In this document: positions 26,360-58,020 of the stretch, in pieces | How positions within the stretch are numbered: the first letter of the stretch is position 1 | Layout of the letters: each line of letters begins with the position of its first letter | Source: Candidatus Spongiisociaceae bacterium | GTDB taxonomy: Bacteria > Actinomycetota > Acidimicrobiia > Spongiisociales > Spongiisociaceae | Direction: 5' to 3' | DNA: 64,000 bases | Assembly: GCA_965262915.1 (NCBI GenBank) | Contig: OZ253564.1 | Location: 1,408,001-1,472,000 of the forward strand | The notes under the pieces: model-generated | What the model was told of the DNA's origin: nothing | Seen by the model: only the letters and a program-made list of their open reading frames with translations | Databases searched by the model: none | Made by a program: the position numbers and the translations under genes

Positions 26360-26917
26360 TCAAGTAAGACCTACCAGGCCGAGCAACTTCCACGCAAGCA
26401 CTACCAGGACCACCGGCATCGCAGCGGAGACCCCAACAGCGACGGTAGCGGTAGCTGACCGGCATAGGCGCCAGGAGCAGGGCATGAGCGCCACCAGGAA
26501 CGACGCCAAAAGGGCGGAAGCCCCCCAACTCACCGCGACAAAACCCAACCGGGCAACCTCGAGGACGCTACGGACCGACACGTGATCGACAACGGTCACT
26601 AACAAGGACAGGGCAACAAGCCCCGCCGAGACAAGCAGCCCCGCCACGGCTGCGATCGAAACAGAGGGTCCATCCATGACTCCAACGGCCCGGTCGACGA
26701 CACCGAAGCGGAACCAGGCCGCCAGCAACGCGACCGGCCACAGCCACAACACGGGAGCAAGGTCTAACGCGAGAGCAAAAAGGCCCGAGCGGGTAACGAA
26801 GAAGGCAGCCCACAGCCCGCCGGTCACCACCAGAGCGGCGATGTAAACAACGATGGCAGCCAGATTCCGGTCGCTATTACGCACCCGGTACGCCCACTCC
26901 CTAAACCTGATGCTCAC
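26360..26917 (-). CDS. Multi-TM hypothetical membrane protein
   Basis: About five hydrophobic helices; GTG start overlaps recombinase stop. Confidence 0.6.
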   Translation of the reverse strand: MSIRFREWAYRVRNSDRNLAAIVVYIAALVVTGGLWAAFFVTRSGLFALALDLAPVLWLWPVALLAAWFRFGVVDRAVGVMDGPSVSIAAVAGLLVSAGLVALSLLVTVVDHVSVRSVLEVARLGFVAVSWGASALLASFLVALMPCSWRLCRSATATVAVGVSAAMPVVLVVLAWKLLGLVGLT

Positions 26918-27858
26918 CCCTGGCCGCCTGGACTGTCGAACTGGTTGGCTGTCATCCGGGCTACCGCTTCGACACCCGGTCGGGTATAGACAGACAGGGT
27001 TCGCAGGTCCCGGTGCCGGCTCTTGGCCTGCAGCATGACAGCCGACGCTCCTGCCTCTGCCAGATGCGTGAGGGAGGAGTGGCGGAGCTGGTGCAGCGTC
27101 CACCCACCGGAATGTTTGTGGAACTCCGCCGCGGCGGTTCGGTAGGAGAGCCGGGCTTGGCCGGTCGCCGCGTGCAGGTCACGCTGCGGTGGGGCGGTGC
27201 GGGACCTCCATCGGGTCAGGAACAGCGGCCCGCCGCTGCGGTCTGCGAGGTAGCGGCCGAGGAGACGGGCGGTCGGCGCCGCCCACAGGATCATGTCGAC
27301 GCTGCCGCCTTTGCTGCGGATCCGGGCCCGACGCCGGGCTCGGTCCAGGTCCTCCACATCCAAAGCCAGGACCTCTGACGCTCTGGCGGCTGTTTCGTAC
27401 AGCATCCGCCACAGCGTCTTCTCCCGAAGCGGCACGGTCCGCCGGCGCCACAGGTCCTCGAGATCCTCATAGGGGACCGCCCGGGTGTTGTCCGCCGGCC
27501 GCCGGCGGGCCGGCACCCCGGCCAGCAGCTCCTCCGCTAGGGGCCAGCGTTCACCGCACCAGGAAGCGAACGCCTGCACCGCGACCCGCCGGGCGTTCCA
27601 CGTTGCCGGCGCGCAACCATCCCACCGCTCCGCAAACACGGCCACCACAAGCTGCGGGTCGAGGTCAGTCACCGTACGGTCGTCGTCCACCGCTTCGACG
27701 AGGGGGTCGAGGGCTTTGCGGTAGGTGCGGCGGGTCTCCGCCGCGAGGTCACGGTGCGCGAAGAAGGCCTCCACCACCCCGGCCACCGACGGGACATGGC
27801 GCACCGGATGATCCGGCTCCGGACCTGCAGGTGGGGGGAAGTGGACAACAGAACCCAT
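26914..27858 (-). CDS. Tyrosine recombinase (family D, copy 1)
   Basis: LYETAARASE, SKGG, LHQLRHS, KSRH, LSVY; paralog of 56810-57730. Confidence 0.92.
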   Translation of the reverse strand: MGSVVHFPPPAGPEPDHPVRHVPSVAGVVEAFFAHRDLAAETRRTYRKALDPLVEAVDDDRTVTDLDPQLVVAVFAERWDGCAPATWNARRVAVQAFASWCGERWPLAEELLAGVPARRRPADNTRAVPYEDLEDLWRRRTVPLREKTLWRMLYETAARASEVLALDVEDLDRARRRARIRSKGGSVDMILWAAPTARLLGRYLADRSGGPLFLTRWRSRTAPPQRDLHAATGQARLSYRTAAAEFHKHSGGWTLHQLRHSSLTHLAEAGASAVMLQAKSRHRDLRTLSVYTRPGVEAVARMTANQFDSPGGQG

Positions 27859-27994
27859 ACCCCCGAGTATGCCCACCGGTGGTGACATTGCCGGGTAAAT
27901 AGGCCGGTTCGGGTGGTATTGCACATATTCCGCAGGGTTCACGCGTCGCGGCGGTTCGTGTTGTGCCTGGTCAGGAGGTTTCGGGCAGGTCGGG

Positions 27995-28025
27995 TATTGC
28001 AGGTATCCGCCTAATACCTGTAGAA
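27995..28025. other. Recombinase core site D1
   Basis: TATTGCAGGTAT-CCGCCTA-ATACCTGTAGAA; extra half-site TATTGCACATAT at 27917. Confidence 0.75.
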
Positions 28026-28708
28026 GCGGAGCGGGGGTGGTGTTGTTCACTCCGGGAATCCCGCTGCGGTCACCAAGCCTATACCTCACCCACCTGAATC
28101 AGCCAGGCGCCGGTTGCTGGCGGGACGCAGCGTGTGGAGGTTCTGTGTGTACAGGGAAGTGAGCTACGAGATCTTGGTCTCATTTCTTGTCCGGGGATGG
28201 TGGGTGTTCCCTCGGCTTGGTGGGTTCCTTCTGGCGGTTGGTCTTGGCGAGCAGCCACCAGATCAGGTAATCGGCCGCCACCTCTGGGGAGAGGGCGGAA
28301 TCCGCGGGACCGTTCTCGGGGTCGGAAGCCGTTGGTACTTTTCTTGTGGTGTACGGGGGGTGAAGATCCTTCGAGTTAGGTGACCGCCGGCGTCAGCCTC
28401 ACGGAGGTATTCGCACTGACCCTGAGGAGGAACGCTGTGGTCGGCAAGAGAACGGACGAGTTGGTGTGGTGACGCAACCATCTCGAGGCGGATGGCAATG
28501 ATCTGTTGCGGGAGATGGTTCGTAGCTTCGCCGCAGGGCCTGATGTCCGCGGAGGCAGATGTGGAAGATCTCGAGGGACTCGGAGATAGCGTTGGCCAAC
28601 TCGATACGGTTCCCGTGCCGTCGCAGGTCTGGTAGCTCGAACCGCAATACGAGCCCAGAAACAAGGTGATTCAGCCCTGCCAGTATGAGCGTTTTGTGTG
28701 AGGCTTGC

Positions 28709-30718
28709 TCAGCCGGTTTTGAATCCTGCGAGAGCCCAGCCCCAGCAGGTTATGCCGCCGTCGGTACGCAACCCACACGAATGAACCGAGCCGGCTTCGA
28801 TAGCCGTGAACTGCCCGCTTGGTGGGTTCAGTAGGCCGGGGATGTCGTACTCTTCGTTGCCTTCCCATTCGCCGTTGTCGCCCCAGCACGCGATGGTGCC
28901 ATCGGTACGCAACCCACACGAATGGTCGCCGCCGGCTGACACAGCGGCGAACTGCCCACCGGGGGGGTCTGCCTGGCCGATGTAGCTGCCGTCGATGTCG
29001 TCGTTGTTGCCCCAGCACGCGATGGTGCTATCGGTACGCAACCCACACGAATGGTCGCCGCCGGCTGACACGGCAGCGAACTGCCCACCGGGGGGGTCTG
29101 TTTGACCATGGTGGTTGAAACCCCAGCACACAATGGTGCTGTCGGTACGCAACCCACAGGAATAGAACGCGCCGGCTGACACGGCAGCGAATTGCCCACC
29201 GGGGGGGTCTGTTTGACCGATGTAGCTGCCGTCGTACTCGTGGTTGCTGCCCCAGCACACAATGGTGCTGTCGGTACGCAACCCACACGAATGGTCGAAA
29301 CCGGCTGACACGGCAGCGAACTGCCCGCCGGAAGCGTCTGTTTGACCATCGTGGTTGTCGCCCCAGCACGCAACGGTGCCATCGGTACGCAACCCACACG
29401 AATGATCCCTTCCGGTTGACACAGCGGCGAACTGCCCGCCGGGTGGGTCTAACTCGCCATGGAGGTTGGAATCACCCCAGCAGGTGATGGTGCTGTCGGT
29501 ACGTAACCCACAGACATAAAACAAGCCGGCTGACACGGCGGTGAACTGCCCGCCGGGGATCTCCAACTGACCGTCGAAATTGTTGCCCCAGCAATGTATG
29601 GTGCCGTCGGTGCGTAACCCACACGAATGAACCCTGCCGGCTGCGACGGCGGTGAACTCCCCATCCGGCGCCCCCGACGGTCCGTAGTAGGTGGAGCCCC
29701 AGCAAGACACGGTTCCGTCAGTACGCAACGCACACAAATGATCCTCACCGGCTGACACGGCGGTGAACTCCCCATCCGGCGCCCCCGACGGTCCGTAGTA
29801 GGTGGAGCCCCAGCAAGACACGGTGCCATCGGTACGCAACGCACACGAGAATCCGTAGCCGGCAGCAACAGCGGTGAACTCCCCATCCGGCGCGTCCAAC
29901 TGGCCGTCTTCGTCGGAGCCCCAGCAAGACACGGTTCCGTCAGTACGCAACGCACACGAGAATCCGTAGCCGGCAGCAACAGCGGTGAACTCCCCATCCG
30001 GCGCGTCCAACTGACCAAGATCATTCAAACCCCAGCACGCAACGGTGCCATCGGCACGCACCGCACACGAATGATCCTCACCGGCTGAGACACTGGTGAA
30101 CTGCCCACTGGGCACCCCAAAGCGCAAGTCTTCAGTGCCCGAAAAGAACCCCGAAAAGAACTCAGGGTTCCAGCATGCGATAGTACCGTCGCTGCGCAGC
30201 CCACAGGAATGCCACCTACCGGCCGAGACAGCGGTGAACTCCCCATCCGGCGCGTCCGATTGACCAACATTGTTCAAACCCCAGCACGCAACGGTGCCAT
30301 CGGCACGCACCGCACACGAATGATGCCCACCGGCTGCGACAGCAGTGAATCGGCTCTCGGTAACCAGAACTCCCCGGGTTGGTGAGCCATCCACTCCTCC
30401 CGTCCTGGCTGCTGCAGTCGTATCGGTAACCACCAGAGCTGGGATAGTTGTAGTGAGGGGCTGGGTAGCGGCAGCCGCCGCAACGAGGGGACCCTCCTCG
30501 GGTGTGCCCACCACAGTGGAGCCTTCCACCGGCGCATCGCTCACGGCGGCAGTCAGCACCGTCGTGGATGCCGTCATAGTCGAAGAGGACAAGACCGCCG
30601 TCCCGGTTGCAGCCGATCGCGAATCAGATGAACTGTCCCCACCGCTCAACAACAACACCACCACCCCAGTCGCTACAAGAACCCCCACAACACCGACCAG
30701 AGCAGCCCTAACCCTCAC
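28709..30718 (-). CDS. Membrane-anchored RCC1/BLIP-II-like repeat protein, 14 repeats
   Basis: N-terminal TM, Ser/Thr linker, 14 x FxAVSAGxxHSCGLRTDGTxxCWG; AGGAGG before GTG 30718. Confidence 0.9.
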   Translation of the reverse strand: MRVRAALVGVVGVLVATGVVVLLLSGGDSSSDSRSAATGTAVLSSSTMTASTTVLTAAVSDAPVEGSTVVGTPEEGPLVAAAAATQPLTTTIPALVVTDTTAAARTGGVDGSPTRGVLVTESRFTAVAAGGHHSCAVRADGTVACWGLNNVGQSDAPDGEFTAVSAGRWHSCGLRSDGTIACWNPEFFSGFFSGTEDLRFGVPSGQFTSVSAGEDHSCAVRADGTVACWGLNDLGQLDAPDGEFTAVAAGYGFSCALRTDGTVSCWGSDEDGQLDAPDGEFTAVAAGYGFSCALRTDGTVSCWGSTYYGPSGAPDGEFTAVSAGEDHLCALRTDGTVSCWGSTYYGPSGAPDGEFTAVAAGRVHSCGLRTDGTIHCWGNNFDGQLEIPGGQFTAVSAGLFYVCGLRTDSTITCWGDSNLHGELDPPGGQFAAVSTGRDHSCGLRTDGTVACWGDNHDGQTDASGGQFAAVSAGFDHSCGLRTDSTIVCWGSNHEYDGSYIGQTDPPGGQFAAVSAGAFYSCGLRTDSTIVCWGFNHHGQTDPPGGQFAAVSAGGDHSCGLRTDSTIACWGNNDDIDGSYIGQADPPGGQFAAVSAGGDHSCGLRTDGTIACWGDNGEWEGNEEYDIPGLLNPPSGQFTAIEAGSVHSCGLRTDGGITCWGWALAGFKTG

Positions 30719-31089
30719 TACCCACCTCCTAACAAACCACAAGCACCCCATCATCACAATAACTAAAGTGCGTGCAACAACCGTAGAGCACATGCACCCC
30801 GGGCTGCATACTGATCGGCGCCGACACTGCACTGGTAATCACACCTGCGAGCGACCCCTCAACAGAATACCTGTGGGCAACCGGAAACGCGAGACACCCG
30901 AGTGACAGCACAGAAGATCGCCATCACAGGCACCGACACACCGGAACCCGGCCGTCATACACCGTAGAACTACGGCACCGAATACCAGACCCGACGCAGC
31001 AGTGACGATCACCGAAACCAGCCATGTCTGCTGATATGAGCGTACCGCAGCGCCGTCGTGCCCGGTCACAGTGTTTCGGTGGGGTCGGG

Positions 31090-31120
31090 TATCGCACATA
31101 TCCGCCCAATACCTGCAATA
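31090..31120. other. Recombinase core site D2 (no adjacent recombinase)
   Basis: TATCGCACATAT-CCGCCCA-ATACCTGCAATA, same orientation and flank as D1. Confidence 0.78.
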
Positions 31121-32061
31121 GTATCTCACCGAACAGAGGGACCAGGTCCGGCCAGGGTATGGCTGCGATTGAGCCGCAAGGAGTGGTCTTGGGTCAGCGG
31201 ATCGACCGGCTCGCGTCCCGAAGTCTAAAAGCGGTCATGCGGGCTGGGAGGGAAGTTTCTTTAACGCCGTGGAGGACCGTTGGTGTTGACCAAGGACCAT
31301 GTCGGCTGGGGTTGTACCAAACGGGTCCGTCTGCTTCGGGTTTACTCGATCACGTCGTGAGTTCTCAGTCCGGGGGGTGCCCATCGCTCTGTTGCCGGGG
31401 CTGTGCTGCGTGTGGTGGGGTATTGGAGAGGTTTTGGTGTTGATGTGAGGGACCATGTTCGGTACGACTGGCAGCGTTGGTGGTTGCCGGTGGGCACAAC
31501 TTTTGTGGAGGCTGCGCGATTTCGTGGGGTCCGGGTTCTGTTGTCGGTGTGAGAGTCACGTTATGAGGATTCCACGGGCTGCAAAACTGTTGGTGTTGGT
31601 GAACCCATTAGCGACTCGGCGTAGGATCTTGAGCAATGGATGGCGCGAGGTCTGGACTGCATGTCCATCGTCAGAGTGTCCGCGCGGTGGTGGACCGCCC
31701 AGGGCGACCCCCGAGGAACTCTATGCAGCTATGAGAGCGGCCTATGACTTCGGCGCGACCTGTCGCACGATTGGTGGCCGGATCGGTATCTCACAGTCAA
31801 CAGCCCGACGTTGGATCACTGGCACCTAGCAACACTGAAGGCAGAGCCACCGGCGGTCTCAGGTGGAGGGTGGGTCCGCCAGCGTCCTCGTCGCTGGAAC
31901 CCAACCACGAGAACCCCCAAAGCCGAATCCGGAACCCCTGCGAAGCGAGAGGCATCTCATTGCCGGGCGCGGAGAGCCGCTGTGCTTTACTGCCCACTCA
32001 ACGACGGATACATCAACACAGGGCTGGCACGCTGGGACAGCCGTTCTGGCACCTCGCCGAG

Positions 32062-33807
32062 CTAGTCCGGGTTATCCGTGCTGTCGGAAGCGAGTGTGTG
32101 GCGTAGCTTCTCTAGGATATGGCTTCGGCGCTTCTCGTAGAAGTCCGGGAACCCCTTGATTTCGGTCGGAACGTCGCCCAGATCGTGCAGATGGCAGTGT
32201 TGTAGCCTTTCCTTCTCGGAGTACTGTTCGCGTAGCCATTCGGAAGGTGGCTTCTTACCCTTGCTGAGGTTTGCCGATCCCTCGAGGAGTTGGAGATTGG
32301 CTAGACGGTTCACTCGCTCGCGATACTTGGGGATCTCGTCGTCGCTGACGCAGGCCTTTCTTAGCTGCGCCGGGGTCATTAGCGCGCGCGGGAAGACATG
32401 ATCGATGTGGAAGCGGTTCGTGGCTACGTCGACAAAATCGTACAGGAGGAACAGGAGGCTGTAGGCTCTTCCATCGTACGCGGCGTCGGCCAAGTCCTGG
32501 AGTTCCTCGTCGTCGAAGGTCAGGCTCTTGCCGGGCGCCATCGCTTTCTCGATCATGCGAGCCGGGAAGCCGTCGTGGCAAGAACTCTCCCGGATCGCTT
32601 TGCGGATCGCCATTAGCAGAGCATCCACTCCACTGCTCCAAATGCCGCGTTTCAGCAGCGAGCGAATCAACCAGTCGCGAATCGCCTCGCGGTCCTTGGT
32701 TCCTAATGATGGCTGACGGTGGTGGAGAAAATAGGCGATCGGCAGCAGGGCGTTTGCCGATGTCAGGCTCTGTCCGGAGTAGCCGAACGAGGATGCAAGT
32801 TCCACCGTCTCTGTGATCGTGCTTCTGATAAGACCCCATTGATCCTGCAGGGCGCCGATCTTCGATTTCTTGAAGTTCTCGACCTTGAAACGGATGCTGT
32901 TGCTGTCGCCGAGCATCAGGCAGGCCTTGAGAACGAAGTCGTGATTGAACGAGAAGCCCCTACCGATGTTCTTGATCTCGTCAACCAGAGAGTGGATCTC
33001 CTGCCGCGCGTCGACCTTATCCCATTGGGCCACCGCCATGCTCAGGAGCATGTCCGAGTAGGAGAGCACCGTGCCGCCGCTGTTGGTGCGAACGAAAATG
33101 TTCAGCACCCGTTCCGGGTCCTGGTCCGCCTCTTCGTAGGCCGAGACTATGCCGTCGCTGTGAACGACGCGGTGAAACCGGTTGAGCACCTTCTGAGGAC
33201 TGCGTGTTTCCGCGAGACCGAGGTCATAGACGACGTCGATCAGGTCCGCGGCATCCTCCACGTCGAGGATGTCCCTCACGCGGTACCAGTGTTCGTGATC
33301 GTTCCTGGTGTTCCGGTTCTTCGCTTCCTTCTCCGGGAGAAGTCTGAACTTGTACAGGAGGTCCTCTTCGTCCTCCATCCGGGGCGCGAGGAGATTGAGG
33401 TAGAGCCGTCGTTCCGGAAAGGCGCGCGGGTTGTTCCACCACAGACGGGGGAGTTTCCATCTACCGCTGCCGTGGAGCCCGACATTCAGCGCAGTGAGGC
33501 GCTGTTGCCCGTCGAGCACCGCCTTCAGGCCGGGCACGGTGGAAGGCGCCCCATGGACGGGATTGTGGGGCTTCCGTTGATCGTAGTTCGTGATGAACTG
33601 GTAGAAGCTGTAGTTCTTGGCAGTTTCGGGATCAACTCGCCAGAACAAAAACGATCCGATCGGATAGCCCCGCATCAGGCTGTCGAAGAGCCGCTCGATC
33701 TGATGCGGTGACCACACGAACTCCCTTTGAATGGCCGGGAGCAGGTAACGGTTGTTGTGAATGTGGTCGATTGCCGCCTTGATCGTGACCGGCGTCTGAA
33801 ATGCCAT
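32062..33807 (-). CDS. GmrSD-family (DUF262 + HNH) type IV restriction-like protein
   Basis: LPAIQREFVW, DSLMRGYPIG, LDGQQRLT, FVRTNSGG; C-terminal IDHVFP...NLQLL...N. Confidence 0.9.
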   Translation of the reverse strand: MAFQTPVTIKAAIDHIHNNRYLLPAIQREFVWSPHQIERLFDSLMRGYPIGSFLFWRVDPETAKNYSFYQFITNYDQRKPHNPVHGAPSTVPGLKAVLDGQQRLTALNVGLHGSGRWKLPRLWWNNPRAFPERRLYLNLLAPRMEDEEDLLYKFRLLPEKEAKNRNTRNDHEHWYRVRDILDVEDAADLIDVVYDLGLAETRSPQKVLNRFHRVVHSDGIVSAYEEADQDPERVLNIFVRTNSGGTVLSYSDMLLSMAVAQWDKVDARQEIHSLVDEIKNIGRGFSFNHDFVLKACLMLGDSNSIRFKVENFKKSKIGALQDQWGLIRSTITETVELASSFGYSGQSLTSANALLPIAYFLHHRQPSLGTKDREAIRDWLIRSLLKRGIWSSGVDALLMAIRKAIRESSCHDGFPARMIEKAMAPGKSLTFDDEELQDLADAAYDGRAYSLLFLLYDFVDVATNRFHIDHVFPRALMTPAQLRKACVSDDEIPKYRERVNRLANLQLLEGSANLSKGKKPPSEWLREQYSEKERLQHCHLHDLGDVPTEIKGFPDFYEKRRSHILEKLRHTLASDSTDNPD

Positions 33808-34738
33808 GCTTTCGACCTCCTAAGGGTACAGGGGCAAGACGGGAATCAAACTTGTCGGCATCGGACCACTCAATGCCGTAAGGGAGGTCACATGCAAGAT
33901 GAGCGAACCCGTACCCTTCCGGCACGCTATACGTTAGCTCAGAAGGATCATCGTGCGCCGCCTCACCGCCCATCCCGACCTTCGCCACGTAGTCCAATCA
34001 CCTGGGACTGACCGTGTCACGAAGGTTGGGAGTGATCCGGTGTCGGGTGGCTAGGCGGGCGAGTTGGGTGGCTAGCGGTGTGGGTAGGCAGGCTAGGGCT
34101 GCTTCGAGTTGTGCCTGGTCGATGACCCGTGGCTCTGGGACGGTGACCGGAATCGTCTGTCTGGGTTCGGTAGCGGGGTTCGGGGCTGGTGTCGGTCCGG
34201 TCGGTGAGCTGTGGTCGCTGTGTGGGGTTCGGTCCTTGAGTTGTTCGTCGAGTCGACGGCCGCGGTGCTGGTTGAGGCGGGTATCGCCGCAGGCGCCTTG
34301 GTGGCGTTGGTGGCATAGGTGTGGTCGGGCGAAGCAGCGGGCGAAATGGGTGGCGAGGCTTCGGCGGTTTCTTACCGGCCGTCCCAGTCGTACTACCCGG
34401 TCAACCTCGAGGGCAGCCTGCTCCGCGACATGCCAACCCCACCGTCGGGCCAGATCCGACCCCACCCAAGCCACGTCGGGTCCCGCCCAGGACCCCGAAG
34501 TAGCCCTGGTTTCGTAGTTGCGTCTCTCCGGAGTCCACCTCCGCCGCCTTCGGACAGGTGGGCCACGTCCCACCACCCCCCGTTTTGTGGTGATTCTTCT
34601 CCTCGGGGCGTCGCCCGAAGGGCGCGCACCTGAAGATTCCTTACGCGCGGAGGTTGTATAGGAAGGCTTGTAGCCGATGAGACCACCCCATAGCCGACCA
34701 GCATCCGGCGGCTCGTTGACAGACGATGGGGCGGTGTC

Positions 34739-34832
34739 GGGGTGACCGTAGTAAATGGACAAAATGTTACGGTTTCAGGGGGGTCCGTAGGGGTCAGAGT
34801 TGGCCGTGGGGTGGTGGTGTGGGGTTGGTGAA
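34739..34832 (-). mobile_element. Solo Tn3-family end (IR family B) with TnpA tail remnant
   Basis: GGGGTGACCGTAGTAAATGGACAAAA similar to 58475; minus-strand GRYDFTNPTPPP. Confidence 0.7.
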
Positions 34833-35920: not shown

Positions 35921-36155
35921 CTAGCCCGTGAGCACAGATGCCAGGGTGGTCGCGGCTCCGTCGATGGCTCGGGCGAGGCAGGTTAGGAACCACTCCATCC
36001 ACTCCGAGATGTCCGGTGTTCCCTTCTGGGTTCGTTCGAGGATGTGGTAGTAGCCGCGGCGTTCCACCCGGATCTGCGATGACATGCTGTGGAAACGCTG
36101 TGAGCTGTTCTCCGAGCGGGCTAGGGCCATGTCAGTGATCGCCCGGGCGATGCGA
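35921..36155 (-). pseudogene. Fic-family protein internal fragment
   Basis: RIARAITDMALAR...MSSQI...YYHILERTQKG..DISEWMEWFL. Confidence 0.75.
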
Positions 36156-37328: not shown

Positions 37329-37335
37329 AAGTCCG

Positions 37336-48176: not shown

Positions 48177-48591
48177 TATCACACGAGAGTGAATTGCCCC
48201 GTTGAGGCGGCCGAGAGCGTTGGGGATCACCGCACTGACCTCAATGGCCGCCATGAACGGGCCGAACGCCTGCGACGACTGGCGACATCGCCCGGCAGTA
48301 ACTTGCGGATGCTTGGCTGGATCGACGACCGCGCTGGAAGTACGCCGAGTCGATAACCGACGGGCCCGGTGTGCTGGCCGCCTACTACGCCTTGTGCGAG
48401 GCCCAAGGGCTGCCCCGCCCCAGCGTGGTCACCTAACTCCGCAGCGGCCAGCGGCCAGCGGCGGGCGGCGCCGACCGGAGGACTGGACTATCGGCTCGTT
48501 GCTAGTGGCTCCGTCTCGGCCTACACTGCACGAGTTGCAGCTCCGGGTTCGCCCTCCGAGGTCGGTTACCGTCTGTAAGGAGGCTTCCGCT

Positions 48592-50241
48592 ATGGATTCT
48601 GTTGCGTGTCGTGTCCGCTGGGCGGGGATCTTGGCGATCCTGGCTCTGACTGCTGCGGTGGCCGCTTGCAGTGGGGACTCGGCGCCTGAGCCGTCCGCGC
48701 CGGACACGTCGTCACCTTCGCCGTCGGTCACCGAGGCGTCCGCGCCGGACACGTCGTCACCTTCGCCGTCGGTCACCGAGGCGTCCGCGGTCACCGACAC
48801 CACGACGCCCCAGCCCACGGCGCCTGAGCCGTCCGTAGCGGCCAGCGAACTCGCCGTCTACATAGACGAGGACACGATCCTACGAGAAGTCTTCGATGCC
48901 TTCGCCGGCTCGGAGCAAGCATGCATCCGCGGCGCCGTCGACGACGAGTTGTTGGAGTCTGTGCTGGACATGCTTGTGCTGTCCGATGACCTTACCGATG
49001 AGTTGGCGGCGTCGATAGTGTCATGTCTCGCTCCGGAGACCGCCCGCGAGTTCCTCCTCTCGGCGTTCATTGCAAGTTTGGAGACGGAGGGGTTGACCGC
49101 CGAGGTAGGGACGAACGCAGAAGCGTGCATGCGAGAGTTCTTGGCTGACATCGACGTGGCCGCAATGGCGAGCGCCATGACTTCTGAGTCTGGCGATCCT
49201 GTCTTTGGCGACGGCTTGTTGGGCTGCATTCACGCCGACGCTCTCAGGGAGGCGACGCCGGTGACGGTCGGCGAGCCTGCGCCCGGCCAGATCAACCACG
49301 ACGACGACGTCGACTTCTTCGTGTTCGAGAGTGAGGAGGGCGAGTTCTACCAGATCGACGTGACGCTGGGAACGCTGCCCGATTCCGTCGCGACTCTCTA
49401 CGACTCCGACGGGTTTGAGCTGGGCTACAGCGACGGTTACGGCGACACCGCCGCATCGCGCATCTATTGGGAAGCGCAAAGCTCAGGGGACCACTACGTC
49501 GCTGTGGAGAGCTGGTCCGGCGTCGGCTCGTACACCCTGACGATCGCGGTCGTCAACATCGCCGACGACCACGCCGGCGCTCTCAGGGAGGCGACGCCGG
49601 TGACGGTCGGCGAGCCTGCGCCCGGCGAGATCAACCCCGACGCCGCCGGCGACGTCGACTTTTTCGTGTTCGAGAGTGAGGAGGGCGAGTTCTACCAGAT
49701 CGACGTGACGCTGGGAACGCTGTCGGATTCCGTCGCGACTCTCTACGACTCCGACGGGTTTGAGCTGGGCTACAGCGACGGTTACGGCGACACCGCCGCA
49801 TCGCGCATCTATTGGGAAGCGCAAAGCTCAGGGGACCACTACGTCGCTGTGGAGAGCTGGTCCGGCGTCGGCTCGTACACCCTGACGATCGCGGTCGCTG
49901 ACATCGCCGACGACCACGCCGGCGCTCTCAGGGAGGCGACGCCGGTGACGGTCGGCGAGCCTGCGCCCGGCGAGATCAACTACGACGTCGACGTCGACTT
50001 TTTCGTGTTCGAGGGTGAGGAGGGCGAGTTCTACCAGATCGACGTGACGCTGGGAACGTTGTCCGATTCCGTCGCGGCTCTCTACGACTCCGACGGGTTT
50101 GAGCTGGGCTACAGCGACGGTTACGGCGACACCGCCGCATCGCGCATCTATTGGGAAGCGCAAAGCTCAGGGGACTACTACGTCGCTGTGGAGAGCTGGT
50201 CCGGCGTCGGCTCGTACACCCTGACGATCGCCACTCGATAG
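48592..50241 (+). CDS. Lipoprotein with three tandem PPC-like domains
   Basis: AAGGAGG RBS; VAAC lipobox; 45-bp tandem linker repeat; three ~113-aa DVDFFVF...GSYTLTI repeats. Confidence 0.88.
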   Translation: MDSVACRVRWAGILAILALTAAVAACSGDSAPEPSAPDTSSPSPSVTEASAPDTSSPSPSVTEASAVTDTTTPQPTAPEPSVAASELAVYIDEDTILREVFDAFAGSEQACIRGAVDDELLESVLDMLVLSDDLTDELAASIVSCLAPETAREFLLSAFIASLETEGLTAEVGTNAEACMREFLADIDVAAMASAMTSESGDPVFGDGLLGCIHADALREATPVTVGEPAPGQINHDDDVDFFVFESEEGEFYQIDVTLGTLPDSVATLYDSDGFELGYSDGYGDTAASRIYWEAQSSGDHYVAVESWSGVGSYTLTIAVVNIADDHAGALREATPVTVGEPAPGEINPDAAGDVDFFVFESEEGEFYQIDVTLGTLSDSVATLYDSDGFELGYSDGYGDTAASRIYWEAQSSGDHYVAVESWSGVGSYTLTIAVADIADDHAGALREATPVTVGEPAPGEINYDVDVDFFVFEGEEGEFYQIDVTLGTLSDSVAALYDSDGFELGYSDGYGDTAASRIYWEAQSSGDYYVAVESWSGVGSYTLTIATR

Positions 50242-50657: not shown

Positions 50658-51236
50658 TGAGCCTCACCGGGTTTCACGCAGGCTGTTTGTTGTGAGTCTC
50701 AGCCTGGTTGGGGGCGCAGCTCCCCGTCCCGGCGGCTGCGGGCCGATCGGCGTTCGGGTTCCCGTTCCCGCCGTTTGTGCTCGCAAGGAGACAGACGGGG
50801 CGATCGGCAACTCAGCACAAATCGGCTCGACCCCATAGGCCTTTCGGTGATCGTCGATGAAGGTGGTCATCTCCGGGGTCGGCGGTCGAACACCTCTGCC
50901 TGGGCGAAATACGCAGACGCCTAACCCAAGATCTCATTCGCCCGCCGCAGCTCCCGGCGCAAGGCTCTGAGCCGCTCCCGCTCTGGACAGCTCAACCCAG
51001 GCCGCAGACCCTGATCCGTCTCAGCACGCCGAACCCATTTGCGTAGCGTCTCCGACGAACACCCGAACTTCTCCGCTCCCGAACAGATAGCCGCCCACCC
51101 AGAACGGTGCTCCCCCCGATGCTCTGACACCATCCGGACAGCACGCTCCCGCACCTCCGGCGAATACATCATCAGTCTTCCCATGACTCCATTATCTCCC
51201 AACTAATCGAGTCTCCGGAAAACCCGGTACGGTTCA
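50658..51236 (-). mobile_element. Internally deleted IS3-family element
   Basis: Left end and orfA nearly the same as 9343-9850; other end TGAGCCTCACCGGGTTTC. Confidence 0.85.
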
Positions 51237-51298
51237 ATAAGCCAAGTGTCCAGCACATGGGGGGAACTCCAGTCGGCTTCGAGCCGCTGTGGCGTTGG

Positions 51299-51901
51299 CT
51301 AGCTGCTGGCTGCGATTTGGAGTACGTAGGGGTTGTTGAGGGTGGCGTTTGCGGGTGGTGCGTCAACCTCGACAGTGTGGACACCGCCCGGTTCGATGGT
51401 GACCGCCTCGAAGATGTGTTCCCCGCCTTGTTCGTCCCCGCTTTGTTCGTCCCCGCTGGCTGCTTGCCATGACAGTTCGTATCCGTGCAGGTCGACCGGG
51501 TAGCTACCAAGGTTCGACACGGTAACCGTGCGGTTGTCTTGGTTGACTTCCACCACCAGGTTTTTTTGCAACACACCGATGCTGCCCGCGGCTAGGAAGT
51601 TCGCCACTTCCGCACGCGTCGCCCCATCGGGGTACAGCCGGTCCACGACCTTGGCGATCTGGGCGGCGGTGATCGTCTCGTCAGGTCTCAGCGTACCGTC
51701 ACCGTAACCCTTGAACCATCCCTCGTTCTCCGCGATGCGGATACCCACGTAAAGGCGGTGGTCCTTGGTGACATCTGTGAATTCGGTCAACGTTTCGTCA
51801 TCGAACGAGCTTTCCCCCGGAATCTCAGCGCAGTCGTCCCACGCTGCCGCCATAAGCAACAACGCAACAACCACTCCGACGATTCGTTTAGCTACGGTCA
51901 T
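51299..51901 (-). CDS. Secreted SLH-domain protein
   Basis: Signal peptide; FTDV...GWFKGYGDGTLRPDETITAAQ, ATRAEVA. Confidence 0.8.
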   Translation of the reverse strand: MTVAKRIVGVVVALLLMAAAWDDCAEIPGESSFDDETLTEFTDVTKDHRLYVGIRIAENEGWFKGYGDGTLRPDETITAAQIAKVVDRLYPDGATRAEVANFLAAGSIGVLQKNLVVEVNQDNRTVTVSNLGSYPVDLHGYELSWQAASGDEQSGDEQGGEHIFEAVTIEPGGVHTVEVDAPPANATLNNPYVLQIAASS

Positions 51902-52599
51902 CTTCAAGCCCCTCTCGGCCCTTTCATACTTGTGGTCTAGCGTAGGTGCCCGGCCAAGAGGGACCTGCAATCTGCAACGGTCAGGCTTGTCGTGGTGGGG
52001 TCCTCGCGGCCCTTAAAGCGGTTGTAATGGTGGTTAGCGTTCGGAAGCCCATTTTGGGATGTTTCCGCCCCGAAACCCTCCCTCGGGGGAGAGAGCCGCC
52101 ACGAACCACCGAACACGGCACCCATTTCGGCCTCCCCGGTGCGGGGTAGCCGCCGATCAGGTGACCGGCGGGCGGTGCCCTGGCGGATCATCCGGGAGCA
52201 CAGGCGCCGACATACCGGGCCGCAACTGTCACGACATCCTGGAGGGGAGCCGGCCATCCTGGCTGTTCGCTGCCCGCAGCGGAGGACCCCTCCGCTGGAG
52301 GGGGCTCGGGGGGGAGTTAGGGCTGGCCGGGGTGTTTGAGGACAGCCAGCGCCACAGGTCGTCTCCGTTCGGGTCCTCGCCGGCGTGGTGGATGCTCAGT
52401 GTCGGGGATTTGCGAAACGGTGGGGCCTTGGCTACGCACGAGGCTGCCTGGTGGATCAGTTGACGGCAGGGCGCAAGCAGGTACTCGAAGGGGACGGATG
52501 GGGCAGCGTTGCTGTAGGGGTTTGAGATAGCAGCAGCGTTACGCAGGGGTAGCGACTCGGTTTCGAACGTTGAGAGGTCCGCCAGTTTTGACGCGTGGC

Positions 52600-52960
52600 C
52601 CATGTGAAGCCGACCACCTCGCCGGCTGTGTTGAGGTCCACGTTCAGCCCACCGACTACCTCGCGTGTCTCCGTGCCCGCGGGTTGTAGCAGCGTCGGTC
52701 ACGTCATTGTGGCGTCGCCCGCTTCGGGACGGCTCACACACCCGGACGGTCGCAGCGGTTGACGCGTCGAGCACTATCTCGTCTTGGGCGGCGAGGCACT
52801 GGAAGAGAGCCTTATGTGGATCAACCCCGACAATCATGCTCTTGGTCCTTGGTCTCAGAAAGATGGGACATCCCGGGAGAGCCAACCCAGCCAGCGACCT
52901 ACCATACGCTACGACCCCACAGCCACAGCGACGAGCCTCCACATACAAGTCGGTGGTTCA
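52600..52960 (-). mobile_element. IS110-family remnant (5' non-coding end and RuvC start)
   Basis: MIVGVDPHK after ~120 nt leader, then collapse of the ORF. Confidence 0.55.
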
Positions 52961-52986
52961 AATTGCACATAGTTTGGGCTGTTCGG

Positions 52987-55900
52987 GTGTCGGGTTGTCA
53001 GAGGAGGCTTTTGGTGGGACTGGGTCGGGTTTTGGTGGTTTTGGTGGTGGTGGGCTCGGTTTTGGCTCCGGGGTCTGGGGTGGGGTTTGGTGATGTTGCC
53101 GCAGCGCAGACGGCCGGTGAGCCGTGTGATGCGGGTTCGGCTGTTCAGTTCCCCGATGTTGGGGTGGGGGATTACGCCGCGGAATATGTTCTGTGTATGC
53201 GGGTGTTGGGCTTGTCGGTGGGTGGACGTGACGGTGGGTACGGTCCCGACGCGGAGTTGACCCGGGGGCAGATGGCATCGTTTTTGGTGCGTCTGTGGCG
53301 CGACGTGTTGGGTCGGGGCTGTCCTGATGATGTTGTGCTGCCGTTTGTGGATGTGGCGGGTACCACCCATGAGACCAACATTGGCTGTTTGTACGGGTTG
53401 GGGATCACCATGGGTACTACTGCCACCACTTATGGGCCCGACGACAGGTTGAAGGCGTCGCAGATTTCGCGGTTCTTGTTGCGGGTTTATGAGAAGACTG
53501 GTGGCCGCTGCGACGCTGTGGGTGGGGAACTGGAACGTGGGTTGGAGTGCCTCGTTGGTTTACGGGTGATCCCGTCGGAGGCTGAAGGTGGGGACGACGG
53601 GTCGGTGACCCGGGCGCAGATGGCGGTGTATGTGGTCGGGTTGTGGCACAACGTTTCGGGCCGTGGTGTAGCCCCACCACCACCTGCGAAAGGGACAAGC
53701 CCCGCAGTCGGCGGCACACAGCCTGAACCAACCGAGAACGAACCCCCACCCGCCGGTTCGTTCACCGCGGTGTCCGCCGGCGACTTTCATTCGTGTGCGC
53801 TTCGCGCCGACGGTTCGGTTGTGTGCTGGGGCAGCACCGAGGATGGGCAGGCGACGCCGACGCCACCGTCGGGTTCGTTCACTGCGGTGTCCGCCGGCGA
53901 CTTTCATTCGTGTGGGGTTCGTACCAGTGGTTCGGTTGTGTGCTGGGGTGACAACGAGTACGGGCGGGCGACGCCACCGTCGGGTTCGTTCACTGCGGTG
54001 TCCGCCAGCTACTTTCATTCGTGTGGGATTCGTACCGGTGGTTCGGTTGTGTGCTGGGGCGGCACCGGGTCTGGGCGGGCGACGCCGCCGTCGGGTTCGT
54101 TCACCGCGGTGTCCACCGGCGTCTTTCATTCGTGTGCGCTTCGTACCAGCGGTTCGGTTGTGTGCTGGGGCGACAACACATATGGGCAGGCGACGCCGAC
54201 GCCACCCGCCGGTTCGTTCACCGCGGTGTCCGCCGGCGACTTGCATTCGTGTGCGCTTCGTACCAGCGGTTCGGTTGTGTGCTGGGGCAGCAACGAGTAC
54301 GGGCAGGCGACGCCACCCACCGGTTCGTTCACCGCGGTGTCCGCCAGCACCTCGCATTCGTGTGGGATTCGTACCGACGGTTCGGTTGTGTGCTGGGGTG
54401 ACAACTGGGCTGGGCGGGCGACGCCACCGTCGGGTTCGTTCACTGCGGTGTCCGCCGGCGAATGGCATTCGTGTGGGGTTCGTACCAGCGGTTCGGTTGT
54501 GTGCTGGGGTGACAACACGGATGGGCAGGCGACGCCACCCACCGGTTCGTTCACTGCGGTGTCCGCCGGCGACTTGCATTCGTGTGCGCTTCGCGCCGAC
54601 GGTTCGGTTGTGTGCTGGGGCAGCAACGAGTACGGGCAGGCGACGCCGACGCCGCCGTCGGGTTCGTTCACTGCGGTGTCCGCCGGCGACTTGCATTCGT
54701 GTGCGCTTCGTACCAGCGGTTCGGTTGTGTGCTGGGGCGACAACACATATGGGCAGGCGACGCCACCCACCGGTTCGTTCACCGCGGTGTCCGCCAGCAC
54801 CTCGCATTCGTGTGGGATTCGTACCAGCGGTTCGGTTGTGTGCTGGGGTGACAACTGGGCTGGGCGGGCGACGCCACCGTCGGGTTCGTTCACTGCGGTG
54901 TCCGCCGGTTTCTGGCATTCGTGTGGGGTTCGTACCAGTGGTTCGGTTGTGTGCTGGGGTGACAACACGGATGGGCAGGCGGCGCCACCCACCGGTTCGT
55001 TCACCGCGGTGTCCGCCGGCACCTTGCATTCGTGTGGGGTTCGTACCAGCGGTTCGGTTGTGTGCTGGGGCCACAACGAGTACGGGCGGGCGGCGCCACC
55101 CACCGGTTCGTTCACCGCGGTGTCCGCCGGCACCTTGCATTCGTGTGGGGTTCGTACCAGCGGTTCGGTTGTGTGCTGGGGCAACAACGAGTACGGGCAG
55201 GCGACGCCACCGTCGGGTTCGTTCACCGCGGTGTCCGCCGGCGACTTGCATTCGTGTGGGGTTCGTACCGACGGTTCGGTTGTGTGCTGGGGCCACAACG
55301 AGTACGGGCAAGCGACGCCACCCACCGGTTCGTTCACCGCGGTGTCCGCCGGCCACTTGCATTCGTGTGCGCTTGGTACCGACCGTTCGGTTGTGTGCTG
55401 GGGCAGCAACGGGTCTGGGCAGGCGACGCCACCCGCCGGTTCGTTCACTGCGGTGTCCGCCGGCAGCTCGCATTCGTGTGGGGTTGGTACCGACCGTTCG
55501 GTTGTGTGCTGGGGCAGCAACGGGTCTGGGCAGGCGACGCCACCCGCCGGTTCGTTCACTGCGGTGTCCGCCGGCAGCTCGCATTCGTGTGGGGTTGGTA
55601 CCGACGGTTCGGTTGTCTGCTGGGGCCACAACGAGTACAGGCAGGCGACGCCACCTGCGGGTTCGTTCACCGCGGTGTCCGCCGGCGGCCAGCATTCGTG
55701 TGGGGTTCGTACCAGTGGTTCGGTTGTGTGCTGGGGCCACAACGGGTCTGGGCAGGCGACGCCACCTGCGGGTTCGTTCACCGCGGTGTCCGCCGGCGGC
55801 CAGCATTCGTGTGGGGTTCGTACCAGTGGTTCGGTTGTGTGCTGGGGTGACAACGGGTCTGGGCAGGCGACGCCACCGTCGGGTTCGTTCACCGCGGTGT

Positions 55901-56109
55901 CCGCCGGCCACTCGCATTCGTGTGCGCTTCGTACCAGCGGTTCGGTTGTGTGCTGGGGCCACAACGGGTCTGGGCAGGTAACGCCACCCGCGGGTTCGTT
56001 CACTGCGGTGTCCGCCGGCAGCTTGCATTCGTGTGCGCTTGGTACCGACGGTTCGGTTGTGTGCTGGGGTGACAACAGGGCTGGGCAGGCGACGCCACCC
56101 GCCGGTTAG
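52987..56109 (+). CDS. S-layer homology (SLH) + RCC1-like repeat surface protein, 21 repeats (start approximate)
   Basis: Signal peptide; FPDV...TRGQMASFL and PFVDV...GITMGT SLH motifs; 21 x 37-39 aa FTAVSAGxxHSC...CWG. Confidence 0.92.
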   Translation: MSGCQRRLLVGLGRVLVVLVVVGSVLAPGSGVGFGDVAAAQTAGEPCDAGSAVQFPDVGVGDYAAEYVLCMRVLGLSVGGRDGGYGPDAELTRGQMASFLVRLWRDVLGRGCPDDVVLPFVDVAGTTHETNIGCLYGLGITMGTTATTYGPDDRLKASQISRFLLRVYEKTGGRCDAVGGELERGLECLVGLRVIPSEAEGGDDGSVTRAQMAVYVVGLWHNVSGRGVAPPPPAKGTSPAVGGTQPEPTENEPPPAGSFTAVSAGDFHSCALRADGSVVCWGSTEDGQATPTPPSGSFTAVSAGDFHSCGVRTSGSVVCWGDNEYGRATPPSGSFTAVSASYFHSCGIRTGGSVVCWGGTGSGRATPPSGSFTAVSTGVFHSCALRTSGSVVCWGDNTYGQATPTPPAGSFTAVSAGDLHSCALRTSGSVVCWGSNEYGQATPPTGSFTAVSASTSHSCGIRTDGSVVCWGDNWAGRATPPSGSFTAVSAGEWHSCGVRTSGSVVCWGDNTDGQATPPTGSFTAVSAGDLHSCALRADGSVVCWGSNEYGQATPTPPSGSFTAVSAGDLHSCALRTSGSVVCWGDNTYGQATPPTGSFTAVSASTSHSCGIRTSGSVVCWGDNWAGRATPPSGSFTAVSAGFWHSCGVRTSGSVVCWGDNTDGQAAPPTGSFTAVSAGTLHSCGVRTSGSVVCWGHNEYGRAAPPTGSFTAVSAGTLHSCGVRTSGSVVCWGNNEYGQATPPSGSFTAVSAGDLHSCGVRTDGSVVCWGHNEYGQATPPTGSFTAVSAGHLHSCALGTDRSVVCWGSNGSGQATPPAGSFTAVSAGSSHSCGVGTDRSVVCWGSNGSGQATPPAGSFTAVSAGSSHSCGVGTDGSVVCWGHNEYRQATPPAGSFTAVSAGGQHSCGVRTSGSVVCWGHNGSGQATPPAGSFTAVSAGGQHSCGVRTSGSVVCWGDNGSGQATPPSGSFTAVSAGHSHSCALRTSGSVVCWGHNGSGQVTPPAGSFTAVSAGSLHSCALGTDGSVVCWGDNRAGQATPPAG

Positions 56110-56628: not shown

Positions 56629-56659
56629 TATTGCAGGTATGGGGGCATTATCTGCCGTC
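56629..56659. other. Recombinase core site D4 (one degenerate arm)
   Basis: TATTGCAGGTAT-GGGGGCA-TTATCTGCCGTC upstream of recombinase. Confidence 0.55.
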
Positions 56660-56809
56660 GCAGTGCTACCGACACCGCCCTCACCTGGGGTTCTCCAACG
56701 GCTGGGGATGCACGAAGCGGTCGGATTATCTGCGGTCGGCCCTATGCGGGGTCGCTCGGGGTGTCTTTTGCCATGCCTGTGGGGTGCACCGTGGGATACT
56801 CCGGAGGGT

Positions 56810-57730
56810 ATGACCCTGGTCCACTTCCCCCAGGCGCCCGCCGCCCATCCCTCCGCACATGTTCCGCCGGTCGGGGCGGCGGTAGAGGCCTTTTTTGTTC
56901 ACCGGGATCTGGCCCCGAACAGCCGCCGCGTCTACCGGGCCGCGCTCGATCCGCTAGTTGCGGCTGTCGGCGCCGACCAGCCCCTAGCAGCGCTCACTCC
57001 CGCAGCCGTGGCCCAGGTGTTCACCGATCGGTGGGGTGGTGCTGCGCCGGCGACGTGGAACACTCGGCGCGCCGCGGTGCGGGCGTTCGTGTCCTGGTAC
57101 GAGGAAAGATGGCCGCTCGGCGCGGATCCGCTCGCTTCGGTCGGTCCCCGCCGCCAGCACACCGACCACACCCGTGCGGTCCCTTACCGGGATCTTGACG
57201 AGTTGTGGCGCCGGCGGTCGGTGCCGCTTCGGGAGAAGACCTTGTGGAGGATGTTGTATGAGACCGCGGCTCGGGCGTCGGAGGTGTTGGCTCTCGACGT
57301 GGGGGACCTGGACCGGCCGCAGCGCCGGGCGCGGGTCGTTTCCAAAGGCGGCAACACTGACATGGTCTATTGGGCGTCGCCCACGGCACGGTTGGTCGCC
57401 CGTTACCTCGCGGGCCGGGGCGGCGGGCCGCTGTTCCTCACCACCGACCGCTCCCGCAACCCCACCCCCCGGCGTGACGTCTATGCCCCGACCGGCCAAG
57501 CCCGGCTCGCCTACCGCACCGCCGCCGCCCTGTTCGGCCGTCACTCCGGAGGGTGGACTCTGCACCAGCTGCGCCACTCGTCGCTGACACATTTGGCGGA
57601 GGGTGGCGCGTCGGCGGTGATGCTCCAAGCCAAGAGCCGCCACCGGGACCTGCGCACTCTCGGGGTTTACACCCGGCCCGGCCCCGAAGCCGTCGCCCGG
57701 CTCACCGACAACCAGTTCGACAGGGCCTGA
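56810..57730 (+). CDS. Tyrosine recombinase (family D, copy 2)
   Basis: Same catalytic motifs as 26914-27858. Confidence 0.92.
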   Translation: MTLVHFPQAPAAHPSAHVPPVGAAVEAFFVHRDLAPNSRRVYRAALDPLVAAVGADQPLAALTPAAVAQVFTDRWGGAAPATWNTRRAAVRAFVSWYEERWPLGADPLASVGPRRQHTDHTRAVPYRDLDELWRRRSVPLREKTLWRMLYETAARASEVLALDVGDLDRPQRRARVVSKGGNTDMVYWASPTARLVARYLAGRGGGPLFLTTDRSRNPTPRRDVYAPTGQARLAYRTAAALFGRHSGGWTLHQLRHSSLTHLAEGGASAVMLQAKSRHRDLRTLGVYTRPGPEAVARLTDNQFDRA

Positions 57731-57989
57731 CAGCAGCCGCAGCTCCGGGTTGGTAGAGCGGCGGACACGCTGGGGTGTAGCCCCCCGACTGGTGCTACCT
57801 TCTCCGGCCCTCGACGGGCGGCAGCGTGGGGCGGGGTCTGGGACGGACGACACTTAGCGGTCGACGATCTCGGGTGTGGAGTTTCCTAGCCCCAGCGTTG
57901 GGCATCTCTAGCCTCCGGGTTCTTAACCCGTCCCCGATCGGGATCCCTCAACCCACACCGAAACCCACAACATCCCATACCTGCCTGGT

Positions 57990-58020
57990 TATTGCAGGTA
58001 TGGGACGGATATGTGCGATA
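57990..58020. other. Recombinase core site D5
   Basis: TATTGCAGGTAT-GGGACGG-ATATGTGCGATA; spacer identical to D3. Confidence 0.8.

Follow-up and report, generated by a model that had tools for sequence, protein, structure and literature searches.

A 64,000-bp stretch of the genome of a Candidatus Spongiisociaceae bacterium (contig positions 1408001-1472000; the contig, a single one of 5.06 Mb, has 64% G+C) raises the question of what five short inverted-repeat sites, here W1 to W5, are for, and whether they have moved the DNA around them. This whole stretch is called the window here, and positions refer to it unless they exceed its length, in which case they refer to the contig. The sites lie beside tyrosine recombinase genes and around genes for RCC1-repeat and other surface proteins, and a first-pass annotation of the window had read them as an integron-like cassette system, possibly derived from Tn3-type resolution sites, that moves or swaps surface-protein genes. 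We favor a different answer, with a probability of roughly two in three (0.68): the sites are res/IRS-like resolution sites of a Xer-like tyrosine recombinase family, and their array in this genome is an accumulation of largely fossil modules. On this reading, what the family does in Actinomycetota and in some other phyla is to serve plasmids and transposons of the Tn3 family. Of the earlier interpretation, this answer keeps the resolution-site origin and the swapping of DNA, and gives up the integron analogy and the specialisation in surface proteins.

All five sites that had been described are present in the window, far above chance: the half-site TATTGCASRTAT (≤1 mismatch) occurs nine times in the 64 kb, against a mean of 0.07 in 100 dinucleotide-preserving shuffles, none of which reaches nine. 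They have a 12-7-12 geometry (two 12-bp inverted arms around a 7-bp spacer), and the view that they are tyrosine recombinase cores is borne out. The sites and the genes of this family in the window are as follows.

26914-27858, minus strand: rec27, intact Xer-like tyrosine recombinase of 314 aa (PF00589 and PF02899), the predicted resolvase of the W1 module
27917-27928, plus strand: accessory (third) arm of W1, TATTGCACATAT, between core and gene, 96 bp from the core start
27995-28025, plus strand: W1 core, TATTGCAGGTAT-CCGCCTA-ATACCTGTAGAA, 12-7-12
31054-31120, plus strand: W2, orphan core (31090-31120) with about 36 bp of gene-side flank, TATCGCACATAT-CCGCCCA-ATACCTGCAATA
46574-46698, minus strand: W3, orphan core (46574-46604) with gene-side flank, TAGTGCACATAT-GGGACGG-ATATGTGCAATA
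56629-56736, plus strand: W4, putative resolution site (core 56629-56659), TATTGCAGGTAT-GGGGGCA-TTATCTGCCGTC
56725-56736, plus strand: accessory arm of W4, TTATCTGCGGTC, at +96 from the core start, between core and gene
56810-57730, plus strand: rec56, intact tyrosine recombinase of 306 aa, 70% identical to rec27 (Pfam, family alignment)
57990-58020, minus strand: W5 core, TATTGCAGGTAT-GGGACGG-ATATGTGCGATA; the spacer reads CCGTCCC on the minus strand
58187-58543, plus strand: rec58, decayed N-terminal fragment of a family recombinase (tblastn; weak PF02899 match)

Two modules are complete, with core, third arm and intact gene (W1 with rec27, W4 with rec56), and a further one, W5 with rec58, is decayed. 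The third arms of W1 and W4 add to what had been described before, and the accessory region of W1 is conserved in the copies at two other genome loci, G473 and G1251. The arm of W1 that is distal to the gene is degenerate, matching at 8 of 12 positions. The second arm of W4 is not simply weak but has another motif, specific to a lineage: this site comes from a sister lineage with the gene-proximal arm GACGGCAGATAA, and the same hybrid core is found at 314484, 2866539 and 4460580. Both arms of W3 are of the CACATAT type and its gene-side flank is common to the genome site G2861; it keeps the core and about 45 bp, and the accessory region was not found there. At W2 we found neither an accessory arm nor a recombinase gene, and at W5 no clear third arm. 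The orientations are those previously proposed, with W1 and W2 in direct repeat and W3, W4 and W5 mutually direct and inverted relative to W1 and W2. The spacers of W1 and W2 mismatch at one of seven positions. W3 and W5 share the spacer GGGACGG/CCGTCCC, which is the commonest in the genome (9 of 17 sites), so that their identity singles out no pair.

The gene starts at 27858 and 56810 that had been claimed for the two intact recombinases are consistent with the family alignment. In the alignment of six family members R159, K183, H256, R259, H282 and Y291 are invariant; we take these to be the catalytic set of the tyrosine recombinase superfamily. The nearest solved relative of the rec27/rec56 family is XerD, and curated Xer models gave the window recombinases 62-77 bits against cut-offs of 220-335 (62-69 bits against 330-335 for the XerC/XerD equivalog models). 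The genome holds three intact copies of the window's own clade, namely rec27, rec56 and one at 315784; the further family copies are one intact, more distant gene at 4931014 and about ten that are frameshifted or truncated. Two unpublished genomes, G028 and G039, were also covered when family copies were sought, but no claim made here depends on them.

The nature of the sites is best seen in the recombinase family elsewhere. A search of 185,579 species genomes with the six-member alignment gave 568 pattern matches, 525 of which were confirmed by tblastn, and 79 foreign loci were kept (L021-L099); these contain 81 recombinase copies, 80 with sufficient upstream DNA. An 11-7-11 inverted repeat (≤2 mismatches) lies within 420 bp upstream of 51 of these 80 copies, and in 49 of the 51 a third copy of the gene-proximal arm stands at +85 to +115 from the core start, mostly at exactly +96. 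The remaining 29 copies have no such inverted repeat at ≤2 mismatches within 420 bp upstream. Arm sequence varies by lineage around a fixed geometry (CTACCGGATAA in Nocardia, Frankia and Pseudonocardia, GTACGTGATAA in Nonomuraea, GTCGCGGGGAA in Solirubrobacterales), and the three-part site co-varies with the protein. The two arms form perfect palindromes at the majority of foreign loci, with no second site found within 10 kb.

The family is also linked to transposons. A Tn3-family tnpA gene is present in 40 of the 79 foreign loci; among the 73 intact foreign copies it lies within 3 kb in 17 cases and within 500 bp in eight, and at the close copies it follows colinearly downstream or diverges from the recombinase gene across the site. 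Of nine foreign loci scanned with Pfam, three were confirmed to have DDE_Tnp_Tn3 with DUF4158. The earlier suggestion of a Tn3-type resolution-site origin is thus upheld by the tnpA linkage and by a core-plus-accessory-arm layout that is a trait of the family. In a quick maximum-likelihood tree, the root of which is arbitrary, rec27, rec56, the copy at 315784 and one sponge-bin sequence form one clade (100% SH-aLRT), which is sister, with 96% support, to a 17-row group that has five copies with a transposase within 3 kb. No examined member of the window clade has a transposase nearby; its sister position to that group therefore places it among transposon resolvases. A 2020 survey of the Tn3 family counts TnpI-bearing elements at 3 of 190 (PMC7157771). 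Taken with the linkage of the present family to Tn3 transposases, this count suggests that tyrosine resolvases may be under-counted, and they may be far commoner in Tn3-family transposons than 3/190.

Relatives of the recombinase occur in 109 plasmid records, all from Actinomycetota. On pFAJ2600 (NC_003846.1, Rhodococcus erythropolis, 5.9 kb) the site ACCGCAGACAA-TGGCCTA-TTATCTGCGGT lies about 120 bp upstream of a recombinase gene that stands beside rep and parA, and the encoded protein is 41% identical to rec27 over 85% of the latter. The protein was reportedly called PmrA, a putative multimer-resolution protein, by De Mot et al. in 1997; on so small a plasmid with rep and parA, no role other than the resolution of multimers is plausible. 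In open-access text we found no paper on pFAJ2600 resolution or on tyrosine resolvases of actinobacterial Tn3 elements.

Within the host genome the sites form a conspicuous repeat family. The pattern GCASRTAT-N7-ATAYSTGC (≤1 mismatch) finds 17 cores, all with a 7-bp spacer, and the reversed pattern, used as a control, gives no match. Applied to the other genomes of the genus, the core pattern gives six cores in G001, two in G007 and one in G005 (where the control also gives one), and none in G002, G003, G004 and G006. When the 17 cores are oriented by their spacers, the family gene expected on the gene side is intact in three cases, decayed in five or six and absent in eight or nine; cores without such a gene include W2, W3, G2861, G2865, G2866, G4448, G4460 and G69. 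Where the gene-side arm is of the CACATAT type, the cognate genes are all decayed. Eight neighbouring pairs of cores lie within about 15 kb of each other, five of them direct and three inverted, and there are three directly repeated arrays (W1-W2, W3-W4-W5 and G2861-G2865-G2866). The only Tn3 transposase in the whole genome is a C-terminal fragment at 4453004-4453645, so the modules here are orphaned, and because no intact transposase accompanies them the array is best read as an accumulation of largely fossil resolution modules. The spacer mismatch between W1 and W2, the missing accessory arm of W2 and the decayed cognates of W3 and W5 likewise indicate that the array is probably largely fossil.

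Have these cores recombined? Three younger pairs are informative, most copies being merely 70-80% identical; at that level the loss of likeness outside gene and site could be plain decay. A 795-bp segment carrying a MarR gene and a site is 97.2% identical between 4080405-4081199 and 4447567-4448358 (cores G4081 and G4448), and the two copies cease to match within the 31-bp core, at base 28; at its left end, which was examined, no site was found. The W3 segment 46574-46698 is 89.6% identical to 2861916-2862040. Here W3 and G2861 share 90-94% identity across core, flank and a gene of a second recombinase family (rec44, described below), and the likeness stops at the core, beyond which nothing is shared: one site has a Fic gene on its far side, the other the upstream region of groES. 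The W4 segment 56629-56736 is 92% identical to 314483-314595, with 88-92% identity between W4 and the site at 314484 (G314) from the first core base onward. At W1, likeness to every other copy of the recombinase module, in this genome and in relatives, ends at the core. Since the likeness of copies that are 88-97% identical breaks at the cores, the cores have been breakpoints at which one module came to lie beside different neighbours, and so have served as crossover points. The broad idea of the first-pass annotation, that the sites swap DNA, is supported to this extent. In the genome we found no segment with cores at both ends that is present in two places.

The W5 segment is also duplicated, at 4921603-4921983 and 4924482-4925166. 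In the region 4921603-4925166 (6603-10166 of locus L014) two inverted copies of a recombinase 3' end plus a W5-type site, about 0.7-1.0 kb each, surround an IS4-like transposase gene; the cores at 4921769 and 4924664 are mutually inverted, and the structure could be an inversion-prone or a palindromic rearrangement.

We also looked for recombined forms in Logan assemblies. The stretch is present in six runs from three studies, and contigs from four runs, which represent all three studies, were compared over 26800-46700. Contigs bridge W1 (X1, X2 and X4) and W2 (X2, X4 and X6) exactly as in the window, and the deletion joint expected from W1 and W2 is not among the 15 joints listed of 57. Excision or circle junctions had been proposed as a check; in the assembled contigs, which were the material examined, neither these nor inversion junctions were seen. 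This result is no evidence against recombination, because contigs cannot show rare forms. A joint between 27944 and 46634 on opposite strands, found in all four runs, was considered as an inversion between W1 and W3 and rejected: it is explained by the paralogous locus G473, the accessory region of which matches W1 while its flank and core match W3.

A complete module consists of a core with two inverted 11-12-bp arms around a 7-bp spacer, a third arm on the gene side, mostly 96 bp from the core start, and a recombinase gene some 80-140 bp farther along. From the TnpI/IRS system of Tn4430 and from tyrosine recombinases generally, the following mode of action would be expected. One recombinase subunit would bind each core arm, cleavage would take place at the edges of the spacer and strands would be exchanged across it through a Holliday junction. 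A subunit on the third arm may help to pair two directly repeated sites on one molecule, and fused replicons would thereby be resolved; binding at the site probably also represses the promoter of the recombinase gene. These steps (binding, cleavage, resolution chemistry) and any present-day activity are drawn by analogy. In this genome the orphan cores W2 and W3 may have been left by earlier crossovers and deletions, and occasional recombination at cores would have placed the same module beside different neighbours. Recombination between W1 and W2 would excise the RCC1 gene that lies between them. For W3 and W5 the spacers match, but the genes cognate to their CACATAT-type arms are all decayed. 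A conspicuous repeat family of the genome would thus be explained as relics and crossover points of resolution modules, which would have helped to build a mosaic island of defence and surface-protein genes.

The genes beside the window sites are the following, together with the rec44 recombinase family.

28709-30832, minus strand: RCC1-repeat protein with an N-terminal hydrophobic anchor, 14 RCC1_2 stretches (Pfam), between W1 and W2
44271-45245, minus strand: rec44, Xer-like tyrosine recombinase of 324 aa from a second, unrelated family (PF00589), with other copies in the genome
46109-46510, plus strand: Fic/Doc-domain open reading frame (ORF) (PF02661), its 3' end abutting W3
47069-47497, minus strand: 3' fragment of a rec44-family gene reading toward W3 (partial PF00589), 90% identical to 44271-44718
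48202-50241, plus strand: PPC-domain protein (PF04151)
51299-51970, minus strand: SLH-domain protein (PF00395)
52759-56109, plus strand: protein with SLH domain and 21 RCC1 repeats (Pfam), reading toward W4

Pfam thus confirmed the 14-repeat RCC1, PPC, SLH and SLH-RCC1 genes of the earlier description. W3 had been said to lack a recombinase; it has no gene of the family on its gene side, but the rec44-family fragment adjoins it and a full rec44 copy lies at 44271-45245. Similarly, the cargo listed between W3 and W5 is there as described, but the interval also holds W4, an insertion sequence (IS) fragment and the rec44-family fragment. Several side features lie among these genes. The PPC-domain gene contains three tandem 339-bp repeats (49231-50231) that are 95-97% identical. 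The IS fragment, at 50709-51237, is a 530-bp piece of an IS3-type orfA (HTH_Tnp_1) with at least 15 genome copies at 82-91% identity, including 9342-9873. At 28341-28564, in the gap that separates W1 from the stop codon of the RCC1 gene, is a repeat of about 220 bp, perhaps a miniature mobile element; it has four further genome copies (1271068, 1737090, 2884945 and 3266280) at 79-84% identity and is found in G007 as well. Another, of about 125 bp (31508-31633), lies within an HTH_23 ORF adjoining W2, has at least 10 copies in the genome and is present in five other genomes of the genus. A small RelA/SpoT-domain protein is encoded at 25530-26270, directly downstream of rec27.

These genes belong to a mobile and defence island of about 57 kb, which runs from the tRNA-Leu/integrase end of the window (about 3160) to about 60 kb and contains IS elements, four kinds of integrase, GmrSD, a cluster of methylase, ATPase and metallo-beta-lactamase genes, and Fic. 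Its left edge is likely at 3160-4594, where a tRNA-Leu(taa) gene at 3160 is followed by a P4-type integrase at 3443 with arm-binding, central and catalytic domains; housekeeping genes resume beyond about 60 kb, with an acyl-CoA dehydrogenase at 61441. The DNA at 32062-44007, between W2 and W3, encodes GmrSD, an N6-methylase, a double GHKL-ATPase protein and a protein with a metallo-beta-lactamase fold; together these resemble defence-system cargo.

Across the genome, the DNA between direct cores is varied: the RCC1 gene in one case, the PPC, SLH and SLH-RCC1 group with IS and recombinase fragments in another, rec56 alone in a third, and elsewhere a recombinase pseudogene with a membrane-protein gene, or a Fic gene. 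Elsewhere the genes next to cores are defence genes of the ABC-3C type, a KAP NTPase, MarR, an SPFH protein and groES. Around six sites of the sister genomes G001 and G007, 38 ORFs were scanned and none has an SLH or RCC1 domain; neighbours there include a KwaB-like protein, Fic with a helix-turn-helix partner, an AbiEii-like ATPase and PIN proteins. The general class of neighbours is one of defence and toxin-type passengers, and it matches what the Tn3 survey reports, namely that toxin-antitoxin passenger genes adjoin res in these elements (PMC7157771). With cargo that is mostly of defence, Fic or MarR type, the proposed specialisation in surface proteins does not hold, and the RCC1 and SLH genes are best read as passengers among many other kinds.

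Several observations weigh against reading the sites as resolution modules. No Tn3-family transposase lies in the window and none is intact in the genome, so that at least 10 recombinase copies and 17 cores are not explained by transposition. The eight closest foreign loci (L021-L028) have no tnpA in the DNA searched. Eight of the 17 cores have no gene-side family recombinase, and plain res sites or operators would need extra rearrangements to account for them. Local arrays are found in this genome and in G001, whereas at most of the foreign loci 20 kb of DNA holds a single site. The modules show one accessory arm, against two in the IRS of TnpI, and kinship to TnpI is suggested by layout and linkage and not by sequence comparison. 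Finally, RCC1 genes within 10 kb of a site number three of seven against 0.26 expected (rotation test, P about 0.002), and SLH genes 6 of 32 against 1.2 (P about 0.01). In this test RCC1 and SLH genes and sites all lie in variable islands, two window genes are not independent, and the window SLH-RCC1 gene was added to the SLH list by hand; the enrichment in this genome is accordingly weak and confounded by the islands.

The local expansion in a genome with no intact transposase is unexplained, and it keeps alive, as an unlikely but serious competitor, the idea of autonomous cassette exchange. Here Tn3-derived resolvases freed from their transposons would act in trans on orphan cores, excising and reinserting site-bounded segments and so shuffling surface, defence and toxin genes between islands in sponge-type Acidimicrobiia. 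Such exchange would fit the three direct-core arrays with recombinase-free cargo, the use of cores as crossover points, the many modules that stand without an intact transposase, the spacer CCGTCCC common to 9 of 17 sites and the weak RCC1/SLH enrichment; moreover TnpI is relaxed on bare cores and acts also between molecules (PMC2847244). However, no doubly core-bounded segment was found at two places in the genome, and the 795-bp MarR segment is cored at one end. The idea that W3 and G2865 have a Fic cassette in common was rejected, the two Fic proteins being unrelated (E = 0.007 over 44 residues), and the RCC1 segment was not recovered in another context, the seven other genus genomes giving just 63-69% repeat-level matches. 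Cargo is heterogeneous in type and orientation, three of the eight neighbouring pairs are inverted, the W1 and W2 spacers are unequal, the CACATAT-type cores have only decayed cognates and the sister-genome neighbours include no SLH or RCC1 gene. If cassette exchange were true, it would add to integrons and pdif modules a third way for short sites to organise gene modules that can be exchanged; built from a resolution site, it would be their counterpart on the chromosome.

A more doubtful explanation is that the array is a tandem of small integrative elements, in which the recombinase is an integrase, the core is attL or attR and newcomers insert into the site of a predecessor. The gene does stand beside the site at one edge of a conserved unit, with likeness ending at the core; W4-rec56-W5-rec58 is a tandem site-plus-gene run; and the gene-distal arm is more variable than the proximal one at W1, G4448 and the G005 copy. 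The conserved unit, however, is about 1.1 kb, comprises gene and upstream site and ends at the stop codon, and none of the 12 copies examined has a second junction site downstream of it. The perfect palindromes of most foreign loci, with no second site within 10 kb, also speak against integration, at 70-80% identity the loss of likeness outside functional parts could be decay, and occurrence in Tn3-type transposons and on a 5.9-kb plasmid is what is expected of a resolvase. It is highly improbable that the sites act solely as operators, or that they form an inversion switch controlling the expression of surface proteins: they do lie in the promoter region of recombinase genes, W2 is about 260 bp upstream of the RCC1 gene and TnpI of Tn5401 regulates its own promoter (PMC7157771), but the orphan cores are distant from all genes of the family, there is no evident promoter segment that could invert, and the sites around the RCC1 and SLH genes are direct and not inverted, so that recombination would delete and not flip.

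How do the resolution modules proposed here compare with known systems? The integron layout of recombinase gene, site, cargo and site is matched by rec27-W1-RCC1-W2, but the likeness ends there. The integron-integrase model TIGR02249 gave 33.8 and 24.8 bits against a cut-off of 265, so that no IntI-type integrase is present; all sites are, judged by sequence layout, simple 31-bp duplex palindromes of the 12-7-12 type and not long folded attC sites; and the cargo genes face both ways, with upstream regions of their own. The integron analogy of the first-pass annotation is thus not sustained. The pdif modules of Acinetobacter plasmids have 11-6-11 sites that are recombined by the host XerC/XerD, with oppositely oriented flanking sites. 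There, as here, discrete gene modules lie between short core sites, with toxin-antitoxin and resistance genes among them, and site-specific movement is deduced mainly from mosaic structure. Our sites differ in being 12-7-12, in having dedicated recombinase genes, with XerC/XerD models far below their cut-offs, and in lying in direct repeat; neither the 11-6-11 geometry with host XerC/XerD nor oppositely oriented boundaries was found. Cre/loxP and FLP/FRT share two inverted arms, an asymmetric spacer of 7-8 bp and a single recombinase species with the modules described here, whereas they have no accessory arm; the phased third arm is typical of resolution systems. The pFAJ2600 recombinase, with its 11-7-11 core upstream of the gene and 41% identity to rec27, is close in anatomy, differing in that a replicon there has a single site, whereas the chromosome here has 17 cores, of which many are orphans.

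The closest parallel is TnpI/IRS of Tn4430 and Tn5401. TnpI resolves transposition cointegrates (PMC2847244, PMC7157771); accessory motifs adjoin its core on the side of the gene, and without them recombination becomes relaxed (PMC2847244). Like that system, the modules have a tyrosine recombinase with the R-K-H-R-H/W-Y set, a site directly upstream of its gene, an inverted-repeat core and a further motif copy between core and gene; the family is linked to Tn3-type transposases, colinear or divergent, and toxin-type passengers stand beside the site. They differ in arms of 11-12 bp and a 7-bp spacer against the 14-bp motifs, 4-bp spacer and 6-bp stagger of TnpI, in a single accessory arm, fixed at 96 bp, where TnpI has two (DR1 and DR2), and in a larger protein with a SAM-like N-terminal domain. 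Placement inside a Tn3 transposon beside tnpA was not found in this window or genome, where no copy has a transposase beside it. The comparison assigns a function and an exact site anatomy to a family that is widespread in Actinomycetota and labelled in databases just as 'site-specific integrase'; the anatomy, of practical use, is an inverted core in which 11-12-bp arms surround a 7-bp spacer, with a third arm in fixed phase at 96 bp. Taken together, these comparisons place the module with the known tyrosine resolvase modules of Tn3-family elements and plasmids.

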